Source of the DNA: Cyanobacteriota bacterium | GTDB lineage: Bacteria > Cyanobacteriota > Cyanobacteriia > Cyanobacteriales > Nostocaceae | Length of the DNA stretch: 64,000 nucleotides | NCBI GenBank assembly: GCA_046045965.1 | Contig: JBJOKS010000013.1 | Coordinates: forward strand, 1 to 64,000 | Direction: 5' to 3' | In this document: piece by piece, positions 46,778-55,572 of the stretch | Layout: each line of letters opens with the position of its first letter | Numbering within the stretch: the first letter of the stretch is position 1 | The notes under the pieces: generated by a model | Seen by the model: only the letters and a program-made list of their open reading frames with translations | What the model was told of the DNA's origin: nothing | Database searches by the model: none | Made by a program: the position numbers and the translations under genes

Positions 46778-47188
46778 TTAGGTAGATATCAAATTAAGAA
46801 AATCTGCTGCTGTAACAATAGCAATACCTTGATAATTACCTAAAGGTAACAAATGTTTTTTATCACCTGTAACAATATGAGTTGCATTTACCAACACTGC
46901 ACATTCTAAAACCATATTATCGTCAGGATCATTAGTGATGACATTTAAAGTATTGCTGATTGTTACTAATCTTAGAAAGCTGAGTAAATCAGCTATTGTA
47001 TCAATTACTTGATTATCTGTAAATTTCAACTTTTGTTGTAATTTTTCCGTGAGTTCTTCCAGTATCTCTGGACATATTACGCCTTCTATTATGCCACTAC
47101 GTGCCAATTCAAGACAGCGAAAAGGTTTGCTTCTCCAACCAATTCCAGATAACAAAACATTTGTATCAAATACAACTATTGGGCGCAT
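46778..47188 (-). CDS. PIN-domain putative toxin
   Basis: VVFDTNVLLS, DPDDNMVLECA, IVTGDKKHLL. Confidence 0.9.
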   Translation of the reverse strand: MRPIVVFDTNVLLSGIGWRSKPFRCLELARSGIIEGVICPEILEELTEKLQQKLKFTDNQVIDTIADLLSFLRLVTISNTLNVITNDPDDNMVLECAVLVNATHIVTGDKKHLLPLGNYQGIAIVTAADFLNLIST

Positions 47189-47430
47189 TGTCTATCCTCA
47201 TGCACCAGATCATCTATAAATGATTCACGTTCATCTTCTGACATAGTATCCCAATTTAAACCTCGTTCAGTACACAAGTTGCGAAGTTGGTTTTCAGCAT
47301 ACTCCATCCGAGACTCACGCTCATTTTTACTTTCCTTAGCGAGTTCTAACAATACTACCCGTTTACTTTCTGGGGGTAGCTGTTTAACTAATTCAATTAC
47401 CTGTTGATCGCTTAATGTCAGATTTGGCAT
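47176..47430 (-). CDS. Putative antitoxin paired with the PIN toxin
   Basis: Small protein with acidic C-terminus whose end overlaps the PIN gene start; GAGGAGG about 8 nt upstream of ATG at 47430. Confidence 0.7.
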   Translation of the reverse strand: MPNLTLSDQQVIELVKQLPPESKRVVLLELAKESKNERESRMEYAENQLRNLCTERGLNWDTMSEDERESFIDDLVHEDRQCAQ

Positions 47431-47472
47431 AATCATTACCTCCTCTTATATTGTATAACAATAAAAACTTTA

Positions 47473-47503
47473 GTAGGGTGTGTTAGGGATAGCGTAACGC
47501 ACC
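47473..47503. repeat. GTAG-type REP-like palindrome
   Basis: gtagggtgtgtta-gggatagcg-taacgcacc; a related degenerate copy lies at about 38772-38800. Confidence 0.55.
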
Positions 47504-47522
47504 GAAAATAAATGATGCGTAA

Positions 47523-47655
47523 TTATGGAGATGGTTTTTCAATAACCACAGTACCAGATAAGATATCATGTAAAGAGCGATGCTTTTTATGCAAGAGGAC
47601 AAAAATTAAATCTAGTAAACCACAGCAGAGTATGAGTATCAAGTAATTGCTGCAT
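47523..47655 (-). pseudogene. Chimeric scar: 5' end of a vapC PIN toxin joined to the 3' end of an RDD-like gene
   Basis: From 47655: MQQLLDTHTLLWFT (VapC-type LDTH motif). In another frame, 47612-47523: DLIFVLLHKKHRSLHDILSGTVVIEKPSP* (RDD-like RxLHDxxxGTxVV). Confidence 0.7.
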
Positions 47656-47879
47656 TACATATAATCCTTCAATTCTTCTAAAGGTTCATCAAAATCATCA
47701 GACATTTTGATCATTCCTTTTGCACTACCAAATTTAGGACGAATTTTCACAGGTAATACAGGAATTAACTTAACAACAGGTTGATTATCTTTCATGATGA
47801 TAATTTCATCACCACCAAGTGCGGCTTCAATTAAATCAGATAAGTGTTGAGATGCTTCATTAACAGTAATTTGTTGCAT
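47655..47879 (-). CDS. Phd/YefM-family antitoxin (now orphan)
   Basis: MQQITVNEASQHLSDLIEAALGGDEIIIxKDNQPVVKL...FGSAKGMIKMSDDFDEPL; TAATG overlap with the vapC remnant. Confidence 0.85.
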   Translation of the reverse strand: MQQITVNEASQHLSDLIEAALGGDEIIIMKDNQPVVKLIPVLPVKIRPKFGSAKGMIKMSDDFDEPLEELKDYM

Positions 47880-47941
47880 AATTACCACCTTTAGCTTTGT
47901 GTGTGCTATTCCACCAACAATTCTATTCTCCATCAAAAACT

Positions 47942-50927: not shown

Positions 50928-51019
50928 TGTTAAGAGTGCTTTACAAATGGTGATAGTTAGTTGTAAATGCTACATTCCCTACTTCTAACCATCACATTTG
51001 CAAATATGACTCCAAAAAT

Positions 51020-52084
51020 TCAAGTAGATGAATTATTTTCTCTGTCAAGTTGTTCTTCTTGAACCGATGAGGTTTTTGGAATTTCCGGGTTTGATGAGTC
51101 GGACTGGGTTGGAGTTTCCGTTGAAGACTGACTTTCAGGGTTAGAGTCAGGTTGAATTTCCGGTTCAGAACTGGTTGTGGGAGTTGGACTCGGTTTAATT
51201 TCCGGTTCAGGACTGGTTGTAGAAGTTGGACTCGGTTTAATTATCGTCGGTTGACTCGTTGGTTCAGGTGTCGGGTTTTTTGGGTGCTGACTTACTATTG
51301 CTAGTATTATTAGACCAAGGCCAATTATCAAAAAAACCAGAATTATTAGAATTTTCAGGTCTTTTTTTTTCCGTTTGCTACTGCTTCCAGACTGCACACG
51401 ATCTGATATACCCCACCACTTAACATCTTGAAGAATATTCTCACTTACATTTTCTGCAACAACTACCAATGCTCCGTTACCTTTTGGTAATTGTTTTGTT
51501 TTCAATTCTTCAGCAAGTTTTTTTATCCACTTTTGCTTAGTTTCTTGAAATATTTTCTGTTTTTGGGGGGATTTTGAATCGACATTTAGTACATCTTGAT
51601 TTAATTTTTTGGTTTTGTCTGATTCTTCTAGTGTTTGAGAACGTGCTTCATTTTTAACCAAATCTATGTACTTAGAAAAATGTTGTTTTTCTACTTGAAA
51701 ACCATGCTCATTATCACCCCATTGAACAAAACCATCAAGTCTTTGAGAAAATAATTTCCAGTCTTGTAAAGCTTCACTAGCTAACATTTGCAAAAGTAAA
51801 TCATCCTCGTGTTTTTGACTGACTAATACTATAGAATTGTAGACAGGACGACCATACTGTGCCGAACGTTCTTTTGTTTTTATCCAGTAAAGCAGCAGGA
51901 TTAATTCTTGATTATTTCTGAACAGAATAACAGCAGGAGTATCTGCTTCATAAAACTGAGAAAGTTTTAATATAGGTGGTTCTTGTCGTTCCAGATTATT
52001 CAACCATGTACTATTTACATAAACTTTTACCCAGCGATAATCCTGTGTCTCTTCTTTTCCGCAACTCTGAATATAAATATCCAT
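51020..52084 (-). CDS. Single-pass membrane protein: N-terminal globular domain, KRKKK, TM helix, Pro/Thr/Ser-rich tail
   Basis: GAGGA SD before MDIYIQSCG at 52084; TM helix LKILIILVFLIIGLGLIILAIV; 42-bp internal duplication. Confidence 0.8.
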   Translation of the reverse strand: MDIYIQSCGKEETQDYRWVKVYVNSTWLNNLERQEPPILKLSQFYEADTPAVILFRNNQELILLLYWIKTKERSAQYGRPVYNSIVLVSQKHEDDLLLQMLASEALQDWKLFSQRLDGFVQWGDNEHGFQVEKQHFSKYIDLVKNEARSQTLEESDKTKKLNQDVLNVDSKSPQKQKIFQETKQKWIKKLAEELKTKQLPKGNGALVVVAENVSENILQDVKWWGISDRVQSGSSSKRKKKDLKILIILVFLIIGLGLIILAIVSQHPKNPTPEPTSQPTIIKPSPTSTTSPEPEIKPSPTPTTSSEPEIQPDSNPESQSSTETPTQSDSSNPEIPKTSSVQEEQLDRENNSST

Positions 52085-52100
52085 TGTTAATTCCTCATTG

Positions 52101-53069
52101 TTAGTCCATGTAAAATAAATTTTTTCCTTGTATGATTTCAAAACCACTGTTAGTTTTGCAGTCTTTAGCTAATTGACGAACAGCTTCATATAAAAACTCA
52201 TCTTTACCAAACAAATCAGCTATCACACCAAACCTACGTTTTTGCAGATAATTCTTTAATAAGAAACGCAAGAGATACTTGAGAGGTTGTTCGTTATCTT
52301 TGGGTGAATAACCGGCATCAATCTCAGGCTTTTTGAAAACAAATTTTGATTGACCATTATCGACCTGAATTGAGGAAAAAAATACATTACCAACAGTCTG
52401 CACAGAAGTAACAACCACAGCAACTTTTTGTCTCAGACTTTCTGAATTAAATAACTGAAGTAAACCCTTGTATTCATCTTTAATACGAGCTAAAAGTTTC
52501 CTTTTAGATTGTTCATCTTTCATGTAACTTTCGCATTTAATTGGGGCAATAATTAACAAGCGATTTGAATTAAGACTGCCATAAATTTGCTCAAACCAAG
52601 CTTTTACTTCTATAGGACGATTTCTCTGAAAATGCCATTTACCGTTAGCTTCCATTAGTGCTGGTGCATCTACAGCAATGAGAACAGCTATAGATTTACT
52701 CAAATGTTCTTTAATAAATTCTTGCCCTTTTTTTTCTCCTTTATCAACGAGATAGCCTCCAGGACAGTCCCACAATGTTAGCTTTAGTTTAGGTGGTTTT
52801 CCTTTACGACCAATATTAAATACAAAAGCCCTTGGTTGTGCAGTAGCTGGAATACCACCTTCTCTTAATTCTTCCTCTAGTTTAAACTCATCATTTAAGG
52901 CTTTGAGTTCACCTAATCTTTCTCCTAAAGTGCTTGCGGTATCAAAGTCAGGGGTGAGTTGGATGCTAGTTTGATTAATTTCCCGATCATATTCATAGTA
53001 CATTGATGTTAATAAACTTGTCTTACCCACATATCTGGGACCAAACATCAAAACTTCAAATTCGAGCAT
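52101..53069 (-). CDS. TRAFAC-like P-loop GTPase domain protein
   Basis: G1 GPRYVGKTS, putative G2 PAT, G3 WDCPGG, G4-like IKCE; AGGAG SD. Confidence 0.78.
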   Translation of the reverse strand: MLEFEVLMFGPRYVGKTSLLTSMYYEYDREINQTSIQLTPDFDTASTLGERLGELKALNDEFKLEEELREGGIPATAQPRAFVFNIGRKGKPPKLKLTLWDCPGGYLVDKGEKKGQEFIKEHLSKSIAVLIAVDAPALMEANGKWHFQRNRPIEVKAWFEQIYGSLNSNRLLIIAPIKCESYMKDEQSKRKLLARIKDEYKGLLQLFNSESLRQKVAVVVTSVQTVGNVFFSSIQVDNGQSKFVFKKPEIDAGYSPKDNEQPLKYLLRFLLKNYLQKRRFGVIADLFGKDEFLYEAVRQLAKDCKTNSGFEIIQGKNLFYMD

Positions 53070-53081
53070 ATCTAAAATCTC

Positions 53082-55283
53082 CTATTTGTTATAATTTAAA
53101 ATTTGCAATTTTTCTGATTCATTGGCATTTTCTACCAATTTAACTAAATCAAGCCATTCTTTTTTTCTAGTTTCCTCAATCAGCTTTCCTTGAAATTCAG
53201 ATTCCCAAATTTTTTCACGAGATTGTAACAGAAATATTTCCCATTCTGTTTTTACATCTTCTGCACGAAGAATTCTATCTAAAAATTCCTCTACTATGGC
53301 AAAAGCAGCTTGATTTGGTTCTTTGAAAAAGTCCATGAGGGATTCTTCACATTTATATACAGCCTCTTGATGAGCGGTTTTAAGGTTATTTAAAACTTGT
53401 TGAGCAGTAGGAGTTTTACTCAGTTGTAATACTTCACTTTCATTTGGTGTCAAAATATCTAAATGTTGCCGGATGCGGTGTTGAACAAAGCCACGATAGG
53501 AAAGCTCAAAATCAGCTAAAACCTGAAAACCAAATTTTAGTTTACAGGGTTTACCACCGATAATTTCATCTGGCAATATTTCCGCCATTGTTCTGAGAAA
53601 TTCTGTTCCTTGTTTTTCTGTTAATGCTCCTAATTTTCCTTGTTGAATTAGTACATTTGCAACTTGATTTTTTAATTCTTCTACCGATTTTTTCAACCCA
53701 TCATCTATAGATAAAAATTTCTGTGATAGATGAGCGCGAACTTCATTCATATACTGTTCATAGGTAGTTCCATAACCTTTGACTTCTTTATTTCTGTCTT
53801 CAATTTGCGTAATTGATGGAATTCCCGTATCCTGTTGACAGGATTGAATTACTGTTTCTACTTGTGCTTTAAAAAATTGATCTTCATTTTCACGATTCTT
53901 TCTGAGATTTTCTAGCAAGTCTTCTAAACTATTGGTGATACTGTTTATCAGTTTTTTGACTTGTGGTAAAAATGTTTCAGCCCCAGTTTCAATTCTAATG
54001 GTTTTACCAAAGACTTTTCTCGCTTTTTCTAATTCCGTCTCTATGGAAGTTTGAATTTCTGTTAATACCTTTTGACAGGATTCTGCATATTGCCTATCTA
54101 AGTTATTAATATTCTTAGCTAGATAATCAATAACTGTTGCTAAAAGCTGATTAGCTTGTTCAGGATTCTTACAATTAGCAATTACACAACCACCTACACG
54201 AATAGGCTGGTTAGCAAGGGTATTTTTTAAATCTTGACACCGATTCCAGTTAGTCTCATCGTGGTTTAATACCATAAAAGACCACAAATTTAGCGGTAAC
54301 TTTTCTTTCAAAGCTTTATAAGCATCATCATATAAATCTATATCATCTTTTTTCCAAAAGTCTCCACTAGGTACTGGTTTCCGCACAAATAAAATAAAAT
54401 CAACATCTTCTCCCAAAGCTTCAATCATCCGTTCTGCATCACCTAATCTAGTATCACCCAAACCAGGCATATCAACTAAACCAATTTTTTCTACACCTGG
54501 CGCTCCAAAGTGACAAAATATTTCTACTTTCTTAACAACTAAATGATTAAATATTAGCGGGTTTCCTTGCGTATCATATTTTTGAGAAACAAATTCTTGA
54601 ATGTGTTCTTTTTTGATTATCTCTTGTCTTTGTTCTGGTTTGAGGAGAAAAGCATATTGATCTAAACATTGATAATAATCATCTCGCAGATGTTTATAAA
54701 TAGATTCTGCTTTAGCTGGGTTTTCATGATTCTTTGGGGGTTCAGGAAACTTTTGATGACGAAAATCATCAAGGGTTTGAGGGATGGGACTAAAATTTAA
54801 TTGTTTGTAATATGGCGCAATAACTTCTTTGAGAAAAGAACTTTCTGAGTGAAAATAAACTTTAGCGTAGGTATTGCCTTCCGTTTGATGATAGATGTTA
54901 CTTTGCACACTGGTACAAGGCATTCTGTCACTACTAGGTATTTCTGTATCCGTGAGTCCACTGAGAATTTGCAAGAGGGTACTTTTACCTTGACGTGCTA
55001 AACCAACAACTCCAATATTGAGAGTTTTACGAGCAAAGCGAAGTCCGAGCTTATCTAATACCTTTAATTCCTCGTCAATTCTCTTTAAAATCTCGGAAAA
55101 ATCAATATTTTGTAGTTTTTTCAAGGTTTCCGGTTCGTTAACACATTCTGCTAGTTGTTTTTGACGATTGACTTCTAAGGTTCTAATTGTTTGATATAGC
55201 TTTTGTAGATTAGGTGTAATTTCTTGTTCAAGTTTATTAGCTAAGGGAATACGCTGAATAATAATATCTTCGATTTGAGGCAT
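53082..55283 (-). CDS. Dynamin-like GTPase
   Basis: N-terminal helical segment; G1 IGVVGLARQGKST, G2 PCTSV, G3 LVDMPGLGD, G4-like VLNHD; long helical C-terminus; start set at MPQIED. Confidence 0.82.
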   Translation of the reverse strand: MPQIEDIIIQRIPLANKLEQEITPNLQKLYQTIRTLEVNRQKQLAECVNEPETLKKLQNIDFSEILKRIDEELKVLDKLGLRFARKTLNIGVVGLARQGKSTLLQILSGLTDTEIPSSDRMPCTSVQSNIYHQTEGNTYAKVYFHSESSFLKEVIAPYYKQLNFSPIPQTLDDFRHQKFPEPPKNHENPAKAESIYKHLRDDYYQCLDQYAFLLKPEQRQEIIKKEHIQEFVSQKYDTQGNPLIFNHLVVKKVEIFCHFGAPGVEKIGLVDMPGLGDTRLGDAERMIEALGEDVDFILFVRKPVPSGDFWKKDDIDLYDDAYKALKEKLPLNLWSFMVLNHDETNWNRCQDLKNTLANQPIRVGGCVIANCKNPEQANQLLATVIDYLAKNINNLDRQYAESCQKVLTEIQTSIETELEKARKVFGKTIRIETGAETFLPQVKKLINSITNSLEDLLENLRKNRENEDQFFKAQVETVIQSCQQDTGIPSITQIEDRNKEVKGYGTTYEQYMNEVRAHLSQKFLSIDDGLKKSVEELKNQVANVLIQQGKLGALTEKQGTEFLRTMAEILPDEIIGGKPCKLKFGFQVLADFELSYRGFVQHRIRQHLDILTPNESEVLQLSKTPTAQQVLNNLKTAHQEAVYKCEESLMDFFKEPNQAAFAIVEEFLDRILRAEDVKTEWEIFLLQSREKIWESEFQGKLIEETRKKEWLDLVKLVENANESEKLQILNYNK

Positions 55284-55572
55284 GGTATAATCTGCCAAAA
55301 CAATTTTCAATTGTATAATTTATCAGCAAAGTGCTAGATTTAGGGAAAAATTACTGTTAATTAATTTAACGCATTTGTAACAGTTGGCAATGATGTAATC
55401 ACACAGATAAGATGCACAGAAACTGAACAGTAGAAAATGCGATGACGCAGGTTTAAAATCCTTGCTTTTTCATCGGTTTTGCATAATTTGGCGCAGATAG
55501 AGTTTGATGATGTAGTAGCGAATTCTATTGGCTTCCAAACATTCTCTTAAATACTCAAAAGGATATACAGCC

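Follow-up and report, generated by a model that had tools for sequence, protein, structure and literature searches.

Three adjacent genes in the 64-kb stretch of Nostocaceae DNA analysed here (the window) form a real, conserved cassette of cyanobacteria and some filamentous actinobacteria, patchy in its spread and apparently undescribed. In reading order they encode a dynamin-like GTPase (gene 1), a small GTPase of the DO-GTPase2 kind (gene 2) and a partner anchored by a single transmembrane helix (gene 3). DO-GTPases have been predicted to act as switches in biological conflict (Kaur et al., 2020; PMC7159879). Our best reading would place the cassette among the DO-GTPase/GAP1 conflict systems, as a variant that carries a dynamin and is centred on cyanobacteria.

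We scored the distribution of the cassette in 301 evenly sampled cyanobacterial genomes. Genes 2 and 3 share one set of 21 genomes, and 28 genomes have gene 1; none of the triad genes was found in the 166 sampled genomes of ten families. Genes 2 and 3 occur in just 5 of 37 same-family genomes, so the cassette is not a Nostocales housekeeping operon, and its distribution is patchy; an earlier note, made from the letters of the window alone, had raised both points. Outside the window genome, all 21 loci that we fetched (20 genomes) keep the order 1-2-3, which bears out the expectation that the genes travel together, with gene 3 split at one locus (L110) and gene 1 at another (L109). There are eight extra copies of gene 1: one in a divergent full triad (L162), one before a different DO-GTPase module (L159) and six standing alone. 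A survey of GTDB covered the best 80 of 164 loci, close kin among them, and found the full triad in 65. Among the 15 incomplete loci, six lack gene 1 and two lack gene 3 at contig edges, a further six lack gene 1 despite at least 6.8 kb of room upstream, and one more lacks gene 3. The order also recurs in Nonomuraea, on a Streptomyces plasmid (where gene 3 is recognised by position, motif and transmembrane helix, with no profile match) and, by profile matches, at 20 of 27 metagenome loci, some of them on contigs with a GC content of 63-68%. Named non-cyanobacterial homologues of gene 2 come mostly from filamentous actinomycetes, and unicellular groups are among the cyanobacterial carriers, so that the link to multicellularity would be no more than a tendency.

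Judged by its sequence, gene 1 belongs to the dynamin superfamily, with a dynamin-type G domain and, after it, long helical stretches. The G motifs named in the earlier note (GLARQGKS, PCT, DMPG and NHD) are present, although in G4 the Asn alone is invariant across the family, and the protein has no transmembrane segment (best 19-residue hydropathy 1.07). Its C-terminal half reaches a mean hydropathy of 0.87 at best and holds no conserved hydrophobic paddle. The window protein matches Dynamin_N at E 3.6e-5, under the Pfam cut-off; all 36 aligned homologues match it at E<=0.01, the best at 1.3e-10. The Atlas places gene 1 with dynamin clusters (0.99) and with a SLIP-GC-like cluster (0.95). In the G domain, the family profile can be aligned to a KGK-clade cyanobacterial dynamin over 258 columns (E 1.2e-5). 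A sequence search of the PDB returned ABC P-loop noise alone, a search of NCBIfam nothing specific, and we rejected PADLOC matches to ZorA and PD-T4-6, which lie on coiled-coil or Pro-rich stretches. At one locus (L108:4951-14038, G272:C24) a single fused protein of 1300 residues begins with an AAA_35 and a Swt1-like HEPN domain, to which gene 1 is joined. The same operon has a further AAA_35 gene upstream, downstream an AAA protein whose tail is vWA-like, and a gene 3 without a transmembrane helix; the gene downstream at L109 is similar to that of L108.

Gene 2 is predicted to have a small-GTPase fold: small GTPases fill the top structural rows for its model, and the longest structural match is YcjX. 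A comparison with DO-GTPase profiles, which the earlier note had proposed, was positive, in that the homologues are DO-GTPase2 proteins: of 38 aligned homologues, 33 match PF19993 at E<=0.01, with a lowest E of 1.9e-12, and the Nonomuraea orthologue scores 44 bits, over the cut-off of 27. Window gene 2 itself has no PF19993 match in a Pfam search. Its Walker B motif reads DCPGG, at a position that is Glu in 35 of 213 homologues and Gly in 96. The basic amphipathic stretch described as its C-terminus does exist, but lies at residues 263-281 of 322 and is probably core structure, because the modelled helix (261-279) falls mostly within the range aligned to small-GTPase G domains. The low-confidence aromatic stretch at 282-287 would be a better candidate than the helix for membrane contact.

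The N-terminal domain of gene 3 is predicted to be longin-like and cytoplasmic. The single transmembrane helix and the KRKKK before it are both confirmed, and the basic motif would fit a positive-inside topology with the N-domain in the cytoplasm. A transmembrane helix is found in gene 3 of 69 of the 75 complete triads. The Pro/Thr tail beyond it is real in the window and not conserved across homologues: tails in these 69 triads range from 0 to 455 residues, many homologues stop directly after the helix, and some tails carry WD40 or Ig repeats. One homologue (P0123) has two gene 3 domains in a single chain. The top structural rows are longin/roadblock-like and DENN-type GTPase regulators, with weak scores that point to a shared fold at most. 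A resemblance to GAP1-N and GAP1-M, the former a comparison raised by the earlier note, appears in predicted structure and language-model features and is absent from profile comparison. Atlas rows with GAP1-N2, N1 and M reach feature values of 0.76-0.81 and structural TM values of 0.41-0.53, all under the bar. Pfam GAP1 is matched neither by window gene 3 nor among the 25 of 111 families listed for 43 homologues, and PF20013 has no match in any of the 21 triad genomes. When the gene 3 profile was set against one GAP1 protein and against an alignment of 120 GAP1-N2/M sequences, neither gave a match or did better than reversed or unrelated controls, and hhalign against one GAP1-N2/M subfamily gave a probability of 0.6%. 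A complex prediction for gene 2 with gene 3 (residues 1-232) scored 0.02, which speaks neither for nor against a complex.

At L001, the cassette occupies the same site as in the window, with identities of 96% for gene 1, 79% for gene 2 and 63% for gene 3. Synonymous divergence (dS) between the two is 0.12 for gene 1 against 0.40 for rbcL and 1.1 for the neighbouring propeller gene; the low value for gene 1 relative to rbcL suggests allele exchange. The ratio of nonsynonymous to synonymous divergence (dN/dS) is 0.17 for gene 1, 0.20 for gene 2 and 0.59 for gene 3, rising to about 1 in gene 3 residues 141-240. On these values, which come from one pair only, the cassette would be a mosaic. Across the family, median pairwise identities of 51, 51 and 36% for genes 1, 2 and the gene 3 N-domain indicate that gene 3 diverges fastest of the three; it forms 593 clusters at 50% identity, and nine close gene 2 alleles are 70-88% identical. 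Strongly supported tree splits in 75 triads (shared/conflicting) number 24/1 for genes 2 and 3, 20/7 for genes 1 and 2, and 19/5 for genes 1 and 3. Two loci carry arrays: 1-2-3-2-3 at L140 (1860-8249), where the gene 2-3 pair is duplicated, and 1-2-3-3-3 at L148 (3720-10189), where the gene 3 copies share 42-71% identity. Genes 2 and 3 behave as a tight pair and gene 1 as a looser partner. The mosaicism, the shared splits and the arrays suggest that genes 2 and 3 are matched to each other and together confer specificity, and that gene 1 is an output that can be exchanged. The earlier note had proposed that gene 3 may recruit both GTPases to the membrane; by these comparisons, gene 2 is the one closely tied to gene 3. 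At four Okeania/Dapis loci (L064, L070, L071 and L077) large insertions separate the triad genes; at L064 an open reading frame of 1834 residues, a kinase-NTPase, lies between genes 1 and 2.

Four relatives, two congeners and two other same-family genomes, have an empty site and join the flanks of the cassette directly, across 77-88 nt in G001, G002 and G018 and with about 220 nt unaligned in G025; about 4.6 kb was thus either inserted here or lost in these relatives. One of them, G001, has its own copy of the cassette elsewhere. Ten records of a plasmid collection, one of them chromosome-sized, hold gene 1, and a conjugative Aulosira plasmid carries one full triad. Gene 1 has no match in 50,697 phage records, and viral contigs yielded no relatives of gene 1 or gene 2.

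In the window, coordinates and sequence confirm three co-oriented minus-strand genes with gaps of 12 nt (genes 1-2) and 16 nt (genes 2-3), Shine-Dalgarno-like sites before gene 2 (AGGAGA) and gene 3 (GAGGA), and, as neighbours, a beta-propeller gene (Pfam Reg_prop) on one side and the rbcL-rbcX-rbcS upstream region on the other (Table 1). The cassette is single-copy in its 5.29-Mb genome, with no paralogue there. That the operon is AT-rich and free of HIP1 sites holds as a description and fails as a signal: its GC content is 34.5%, where the genome has 38.1%, but among 5000 random stretches of its size 9.7% have a GC content as low and 13.8% have no HIP1 site. Neither feature being beyond chance, we rejected them as signs of foreign origin. 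A promoter/terminator scan was at chance level (23 vs 17.8). One metatranscriptome includes contigs on each of the three genes, at a depth of 3-7 where rbcL exceeds 1000; these may stem from DNA carry-over. Just downstream of rbcS (window 46778-47936) lie, by eye, a PIN-like toxin-antitoxin pair and a Phd-like antitoxin gene.

Table 1. Features of the cassette, in window coordinates.
Feature	Position	Strand	Basis
Gene 1, dynamin-like GTPase, 733 aa, no transmembrane segment; likely effector	53082..55283	-	motifs, Pfam matches of homologues, Atlas
Gene 2, small TRAFAC GTPase of the DO-GTPase2 kind, 322 aa; likely switch	52101..53069	-	
Gene 3, whole, 354 aa	51020..52084	-	
Gene 3 residues 1-240, predicted longin-like domain (1-150) and small alpha/beta lobe; likely regulator and specificity module	51365..52084	-	
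Gene 3 single transmembrane helix, residues 245-263, KRKKK before it	51296..51352	-	hydropathy 3.5
Gene 3 Pro/Thr-rich outer tail, not conserved	51020..51295	-	sequence, alignment, tail lengths
Insert of about 4.6 kb with the cassette, approximate extent, rbcL upstream region to beta-propeller gene	50966..55552	.	comparison with G001, G002, G018, G025

The flanks of the cassette are mostly housekeeping genes and differ between genomes (725 flank clusters), with no conserved fourth gene. Links of a conflict type recur: the AAA-HEPN fusion at L108, vWA genes, and the settings of stand-alone gene 1. A gene with a vWA domain lies near 15 loci, namely L060 (12703-13566) and 14 others, in Coleofasciculus, in Okeania/Dapis and at two other loci. 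Among the stand-alone copies, one follows, at a distance of 350 nt, the tube, baseplate-hub and PAAR genes of a contractile injection cluster (L155:2802-8453), another is embedded, co-oriented, within a cluster of vWA, FHA, PP2C and kinase-TPR genes (L156:2803-11315), and a third sits near a pair made up of ParA and RiboL-PSP-HEPN genes, head to head with a KGK-clade dynamin (L158:2867-12857).

Several modules related to the cassette were seen at other loci. On a Stanieria plasmid (L119:8977-16883) and at L159:7067-15417, a gene 1 relative is accompanied by a DO-GTPase1/2-like gene, a protein of about 1000 residues and a transmembrane protein; the large protein has no Pfam match, and its start is GAP1-like by eye. 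On the Nostoc plasmid pNsp_h (L123:958-11631), a gene 1 relative is divergent from three tandem DO-GTPase-like genes in a module that also holds an 812-residue transmembrane protein, another transmembrane protein and vWA genes. A canonical GAP1-N2 system in a cyanobacterium (L127:3117-13573, G322:C447) comprises a DO-GTPase2, an 850-residue GAP1, a transmembrane protein and a GrpE-like gene.

By analogy with known systems, we see about an even chance that the cassette defends the cell at its membrane under the control of a switch: gene 3 would sense and regulate, gene 2 would be the switch, and the dynamin would be the effector. Gene 3 would sense an invader or a disturbance of the envelope and would set the nucleotide state of gene 2, as an exchange factor or activator, much as longin domains act on small GTPases. 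Once switched, gene 2 would license membrane assembly of the dynamin, which is soluble and itself unanchored, and the assembled gene 1 protein would seal, constrict or disable the infected cell. A tentative extension, possible though well short of an even chance, is that the operon wires together three eukaryotic membrane-traffic classes, an anchored longin/DENN-like regulator, a Rag/Rab-like small GTPase and a dynamin. On this view regulator and switch would together serve as an exchangeable, allele-specific sensor, triggering dynamin assembly on the membrane and containing infection in filamentous bacteria. The genomic setting weighs against a defence-island system, in that the association of the cassette with defence islands is weak. 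PADLOC, run without a background control on 140 flanking proteins of the 21 loci, found full defence-type neighbours at two loci and methyltransferases at two more; the earlier note had asked about enrichment near defence genes. On the three genes themselves PADLOC matched no known system. Flanking matches to Uma2 (PDC-S03/S17) and kinase (PD-T4-6) proteins were not counted as defence, both families being very common in cyanobacteria.

The same anatomy could serve accessory repair of membrane stress, countering damage by heat, osmotic shifts or antibiotics as YcjX does with its membrane partner, or as in DynA surveillance, with no specific anti-phage role. We consider this unlikely, since the patchy presence at many unrelated sites and on plasmids, the fast-changing gene 3 and the gene 3 arrays fit an arms race better. 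We give little credence to a system of toxin-immunity or self-recognition, in which gene 1 would inhibit growth, genes 2 and 3 or gene 3 alone would neutralise it or mark kin, and the arrays would be collected immunity alleles. Immunity normally co-varies with its toxin, yet gene 3 tracks gene 2 and not gene 1, and gene 1 stands alone at six loci without an evident immunity partner; the divergent tandem gene 3 copies (L148), the duplicated gene 2-3 pair (L140), the wealth of gene 3 clusters, the close gene 2 alleles and the lone gene 1 behind a contractile injection cluster (L155) are what such a system would lead one to expect. Some dynamin-like proteins, SLIP-GC and CrfC among them, act on DNA or protein complexes, and gene 1 could do likewise, or trap viral structures as Mx does, with the anchor merely positioning the switch. 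This too seems improbable: the missing transmembrane segment and paddle, the SLIP-GC look-alike and the HEPN fusion at L108 agree with a target other than lipid, but membrane binding without a transmembrane segment is common among dynamins, and the partner is membrane-anchored in most triads. Lastly, selfish or neutral cargo, an addiction-like cassette without host benefit, is very improbable, as frequent loss and operon-splitting insertions (L110, L118 and the Okeania/Dapis loci) are set against purifying selection on genes 1 and 2, an order kept between cyanobacteria and actinobacteria, and a window insert at which no integrase, transposase or terminal repeat was seen.

Full-text literature searches, outside which most subscription papers lie, returned no description of the triad; the source data of PMC7159879 may list such neighbourhoods. 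Specialists may already know the cassette, because a 2026 preprint mentions unpublished longin-like GTPase partners in anti-selfish-element systems (10.64898/2026.10.19.760177). DO-GTPase systems are so far predictions in the literature that we consulted on them, and the cassette bears on how bacterial dynamins are switched on. It is small (4.3 kb) and complete, named strains in culture have it, and nature supplies allele pairs and arrays of it; it therefore makes longin-like control of a DO-GTPase, small-GTPase control of a bacterial dynamin, and phage defence directly testable. It extends DO-GTPase systems into cyanobacteria, from which DO-GTPase/GAP1 systems were reported to be "nearly completely absent" (PMC7159879), and, on the tentative extension above, it would allow the control of a dynamin by a small GTPase to be tested in a prokaryote.

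The earlier note had inferred that the architecture is an exact fit to none of the dynamin and GTPase conflict systems that it named, and the same holds for the known systems compared here. YcjX-YcjF, a stress operon of E. coli, resembles it in that YcjX, the longest structural match to gene 2, has a membrane partner; that partner is not known to be related to gene 3, however, no dynamin is present, and gene 2 has no DUF463 match. Longin/roadblock domains regulate small GTPases (PMC3521125), and the cassette shares with MglA-MglB and with the longin/DENN regulators of Rag/Rab (FLCN-FNIP, TRAPP, DENND10/11) a small GTPase encoded beside a longin/roadblock-like partner. Gene 3 differs in its transmembrane anchor and in lacking a full DENN module, and the likeness in structure goes no further than noted above.

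Among the cyanobacterial dynamins described in the available text of Jilly et al. (2018; PMC5827413), which are grouped into KGK, HSR1, chaperone and tandem A/B clades, gene 1 shares the Dynamin_N G domain and can be aligned to a KGK-clade protein; in the HSR1 clade, likened here by description, a gene for a GTP-binding protein likewise lies downstream. The L/INALL/I extension that nearly all cyanobacterial dynamins are reported there to have is missing from gene 1 (it reads GKSTLLQIL), which has no KGK, DnaK or second dynamin neighbour. The KGK, chaperone and tandem clades as given in that text do not accommodate it. Some homologues may be among its unclassified entries: Lyngbya aestuarii BL J, which is our L028, appears in its table. 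Leo-like dynamins and DynA protect against phage (10.1101/2022.05.11.491447; for DynA also PMC8844932), and Eleos/LeoABC likewise pairs a dynamin-like GTPase with a second GTPase in a mobile operon. Eleos, however, has two dynamin-like proteins, whereas the second GTPase of the cassette is small and is followed by a longin-like transmembrane protein; the one PADLOC match to its models, a weak one to LeoBC (E 0.0027), covers a coiled coil at residues 381-550 of gene 1, with none for gene 2, and the association with defence islands is much weaker. On sequence grounds, the cassette is not Eleos.

From canonical DO-GTPase/GAP1 systems the cassette differs in a number of respects: firstly, it adds an upstream dynamin, a word absent from the available text of PMC7159879; secondly, it has one DO-type GTPase, which lacks a zinc ribbon and, in most homologues, the conserved Walker B Glu; thirdly, its partner is 240-350 residues long without GAP1-C, gene 3 reaching its transmembrane helix by about residue 245, whereas the canonical GAP1 at L127 has 850 residues; fourthly, no GASH/FNIII Pfam family occurs among 83 flanking or fused proteins of the 21 loci; and fifthly, it is centred on cyanobacteria, in which canonical GAP1-N2 was found in 1 of the 301 genomes searched. 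What the two have in common is a DO-GTPase2-type GTPase directly before a partner that resembles GAP1-N/M by predicted structure and is often transmembrane-anchored, together with mobility, nearby vWA genes and occurrence in filamentous bacteria.

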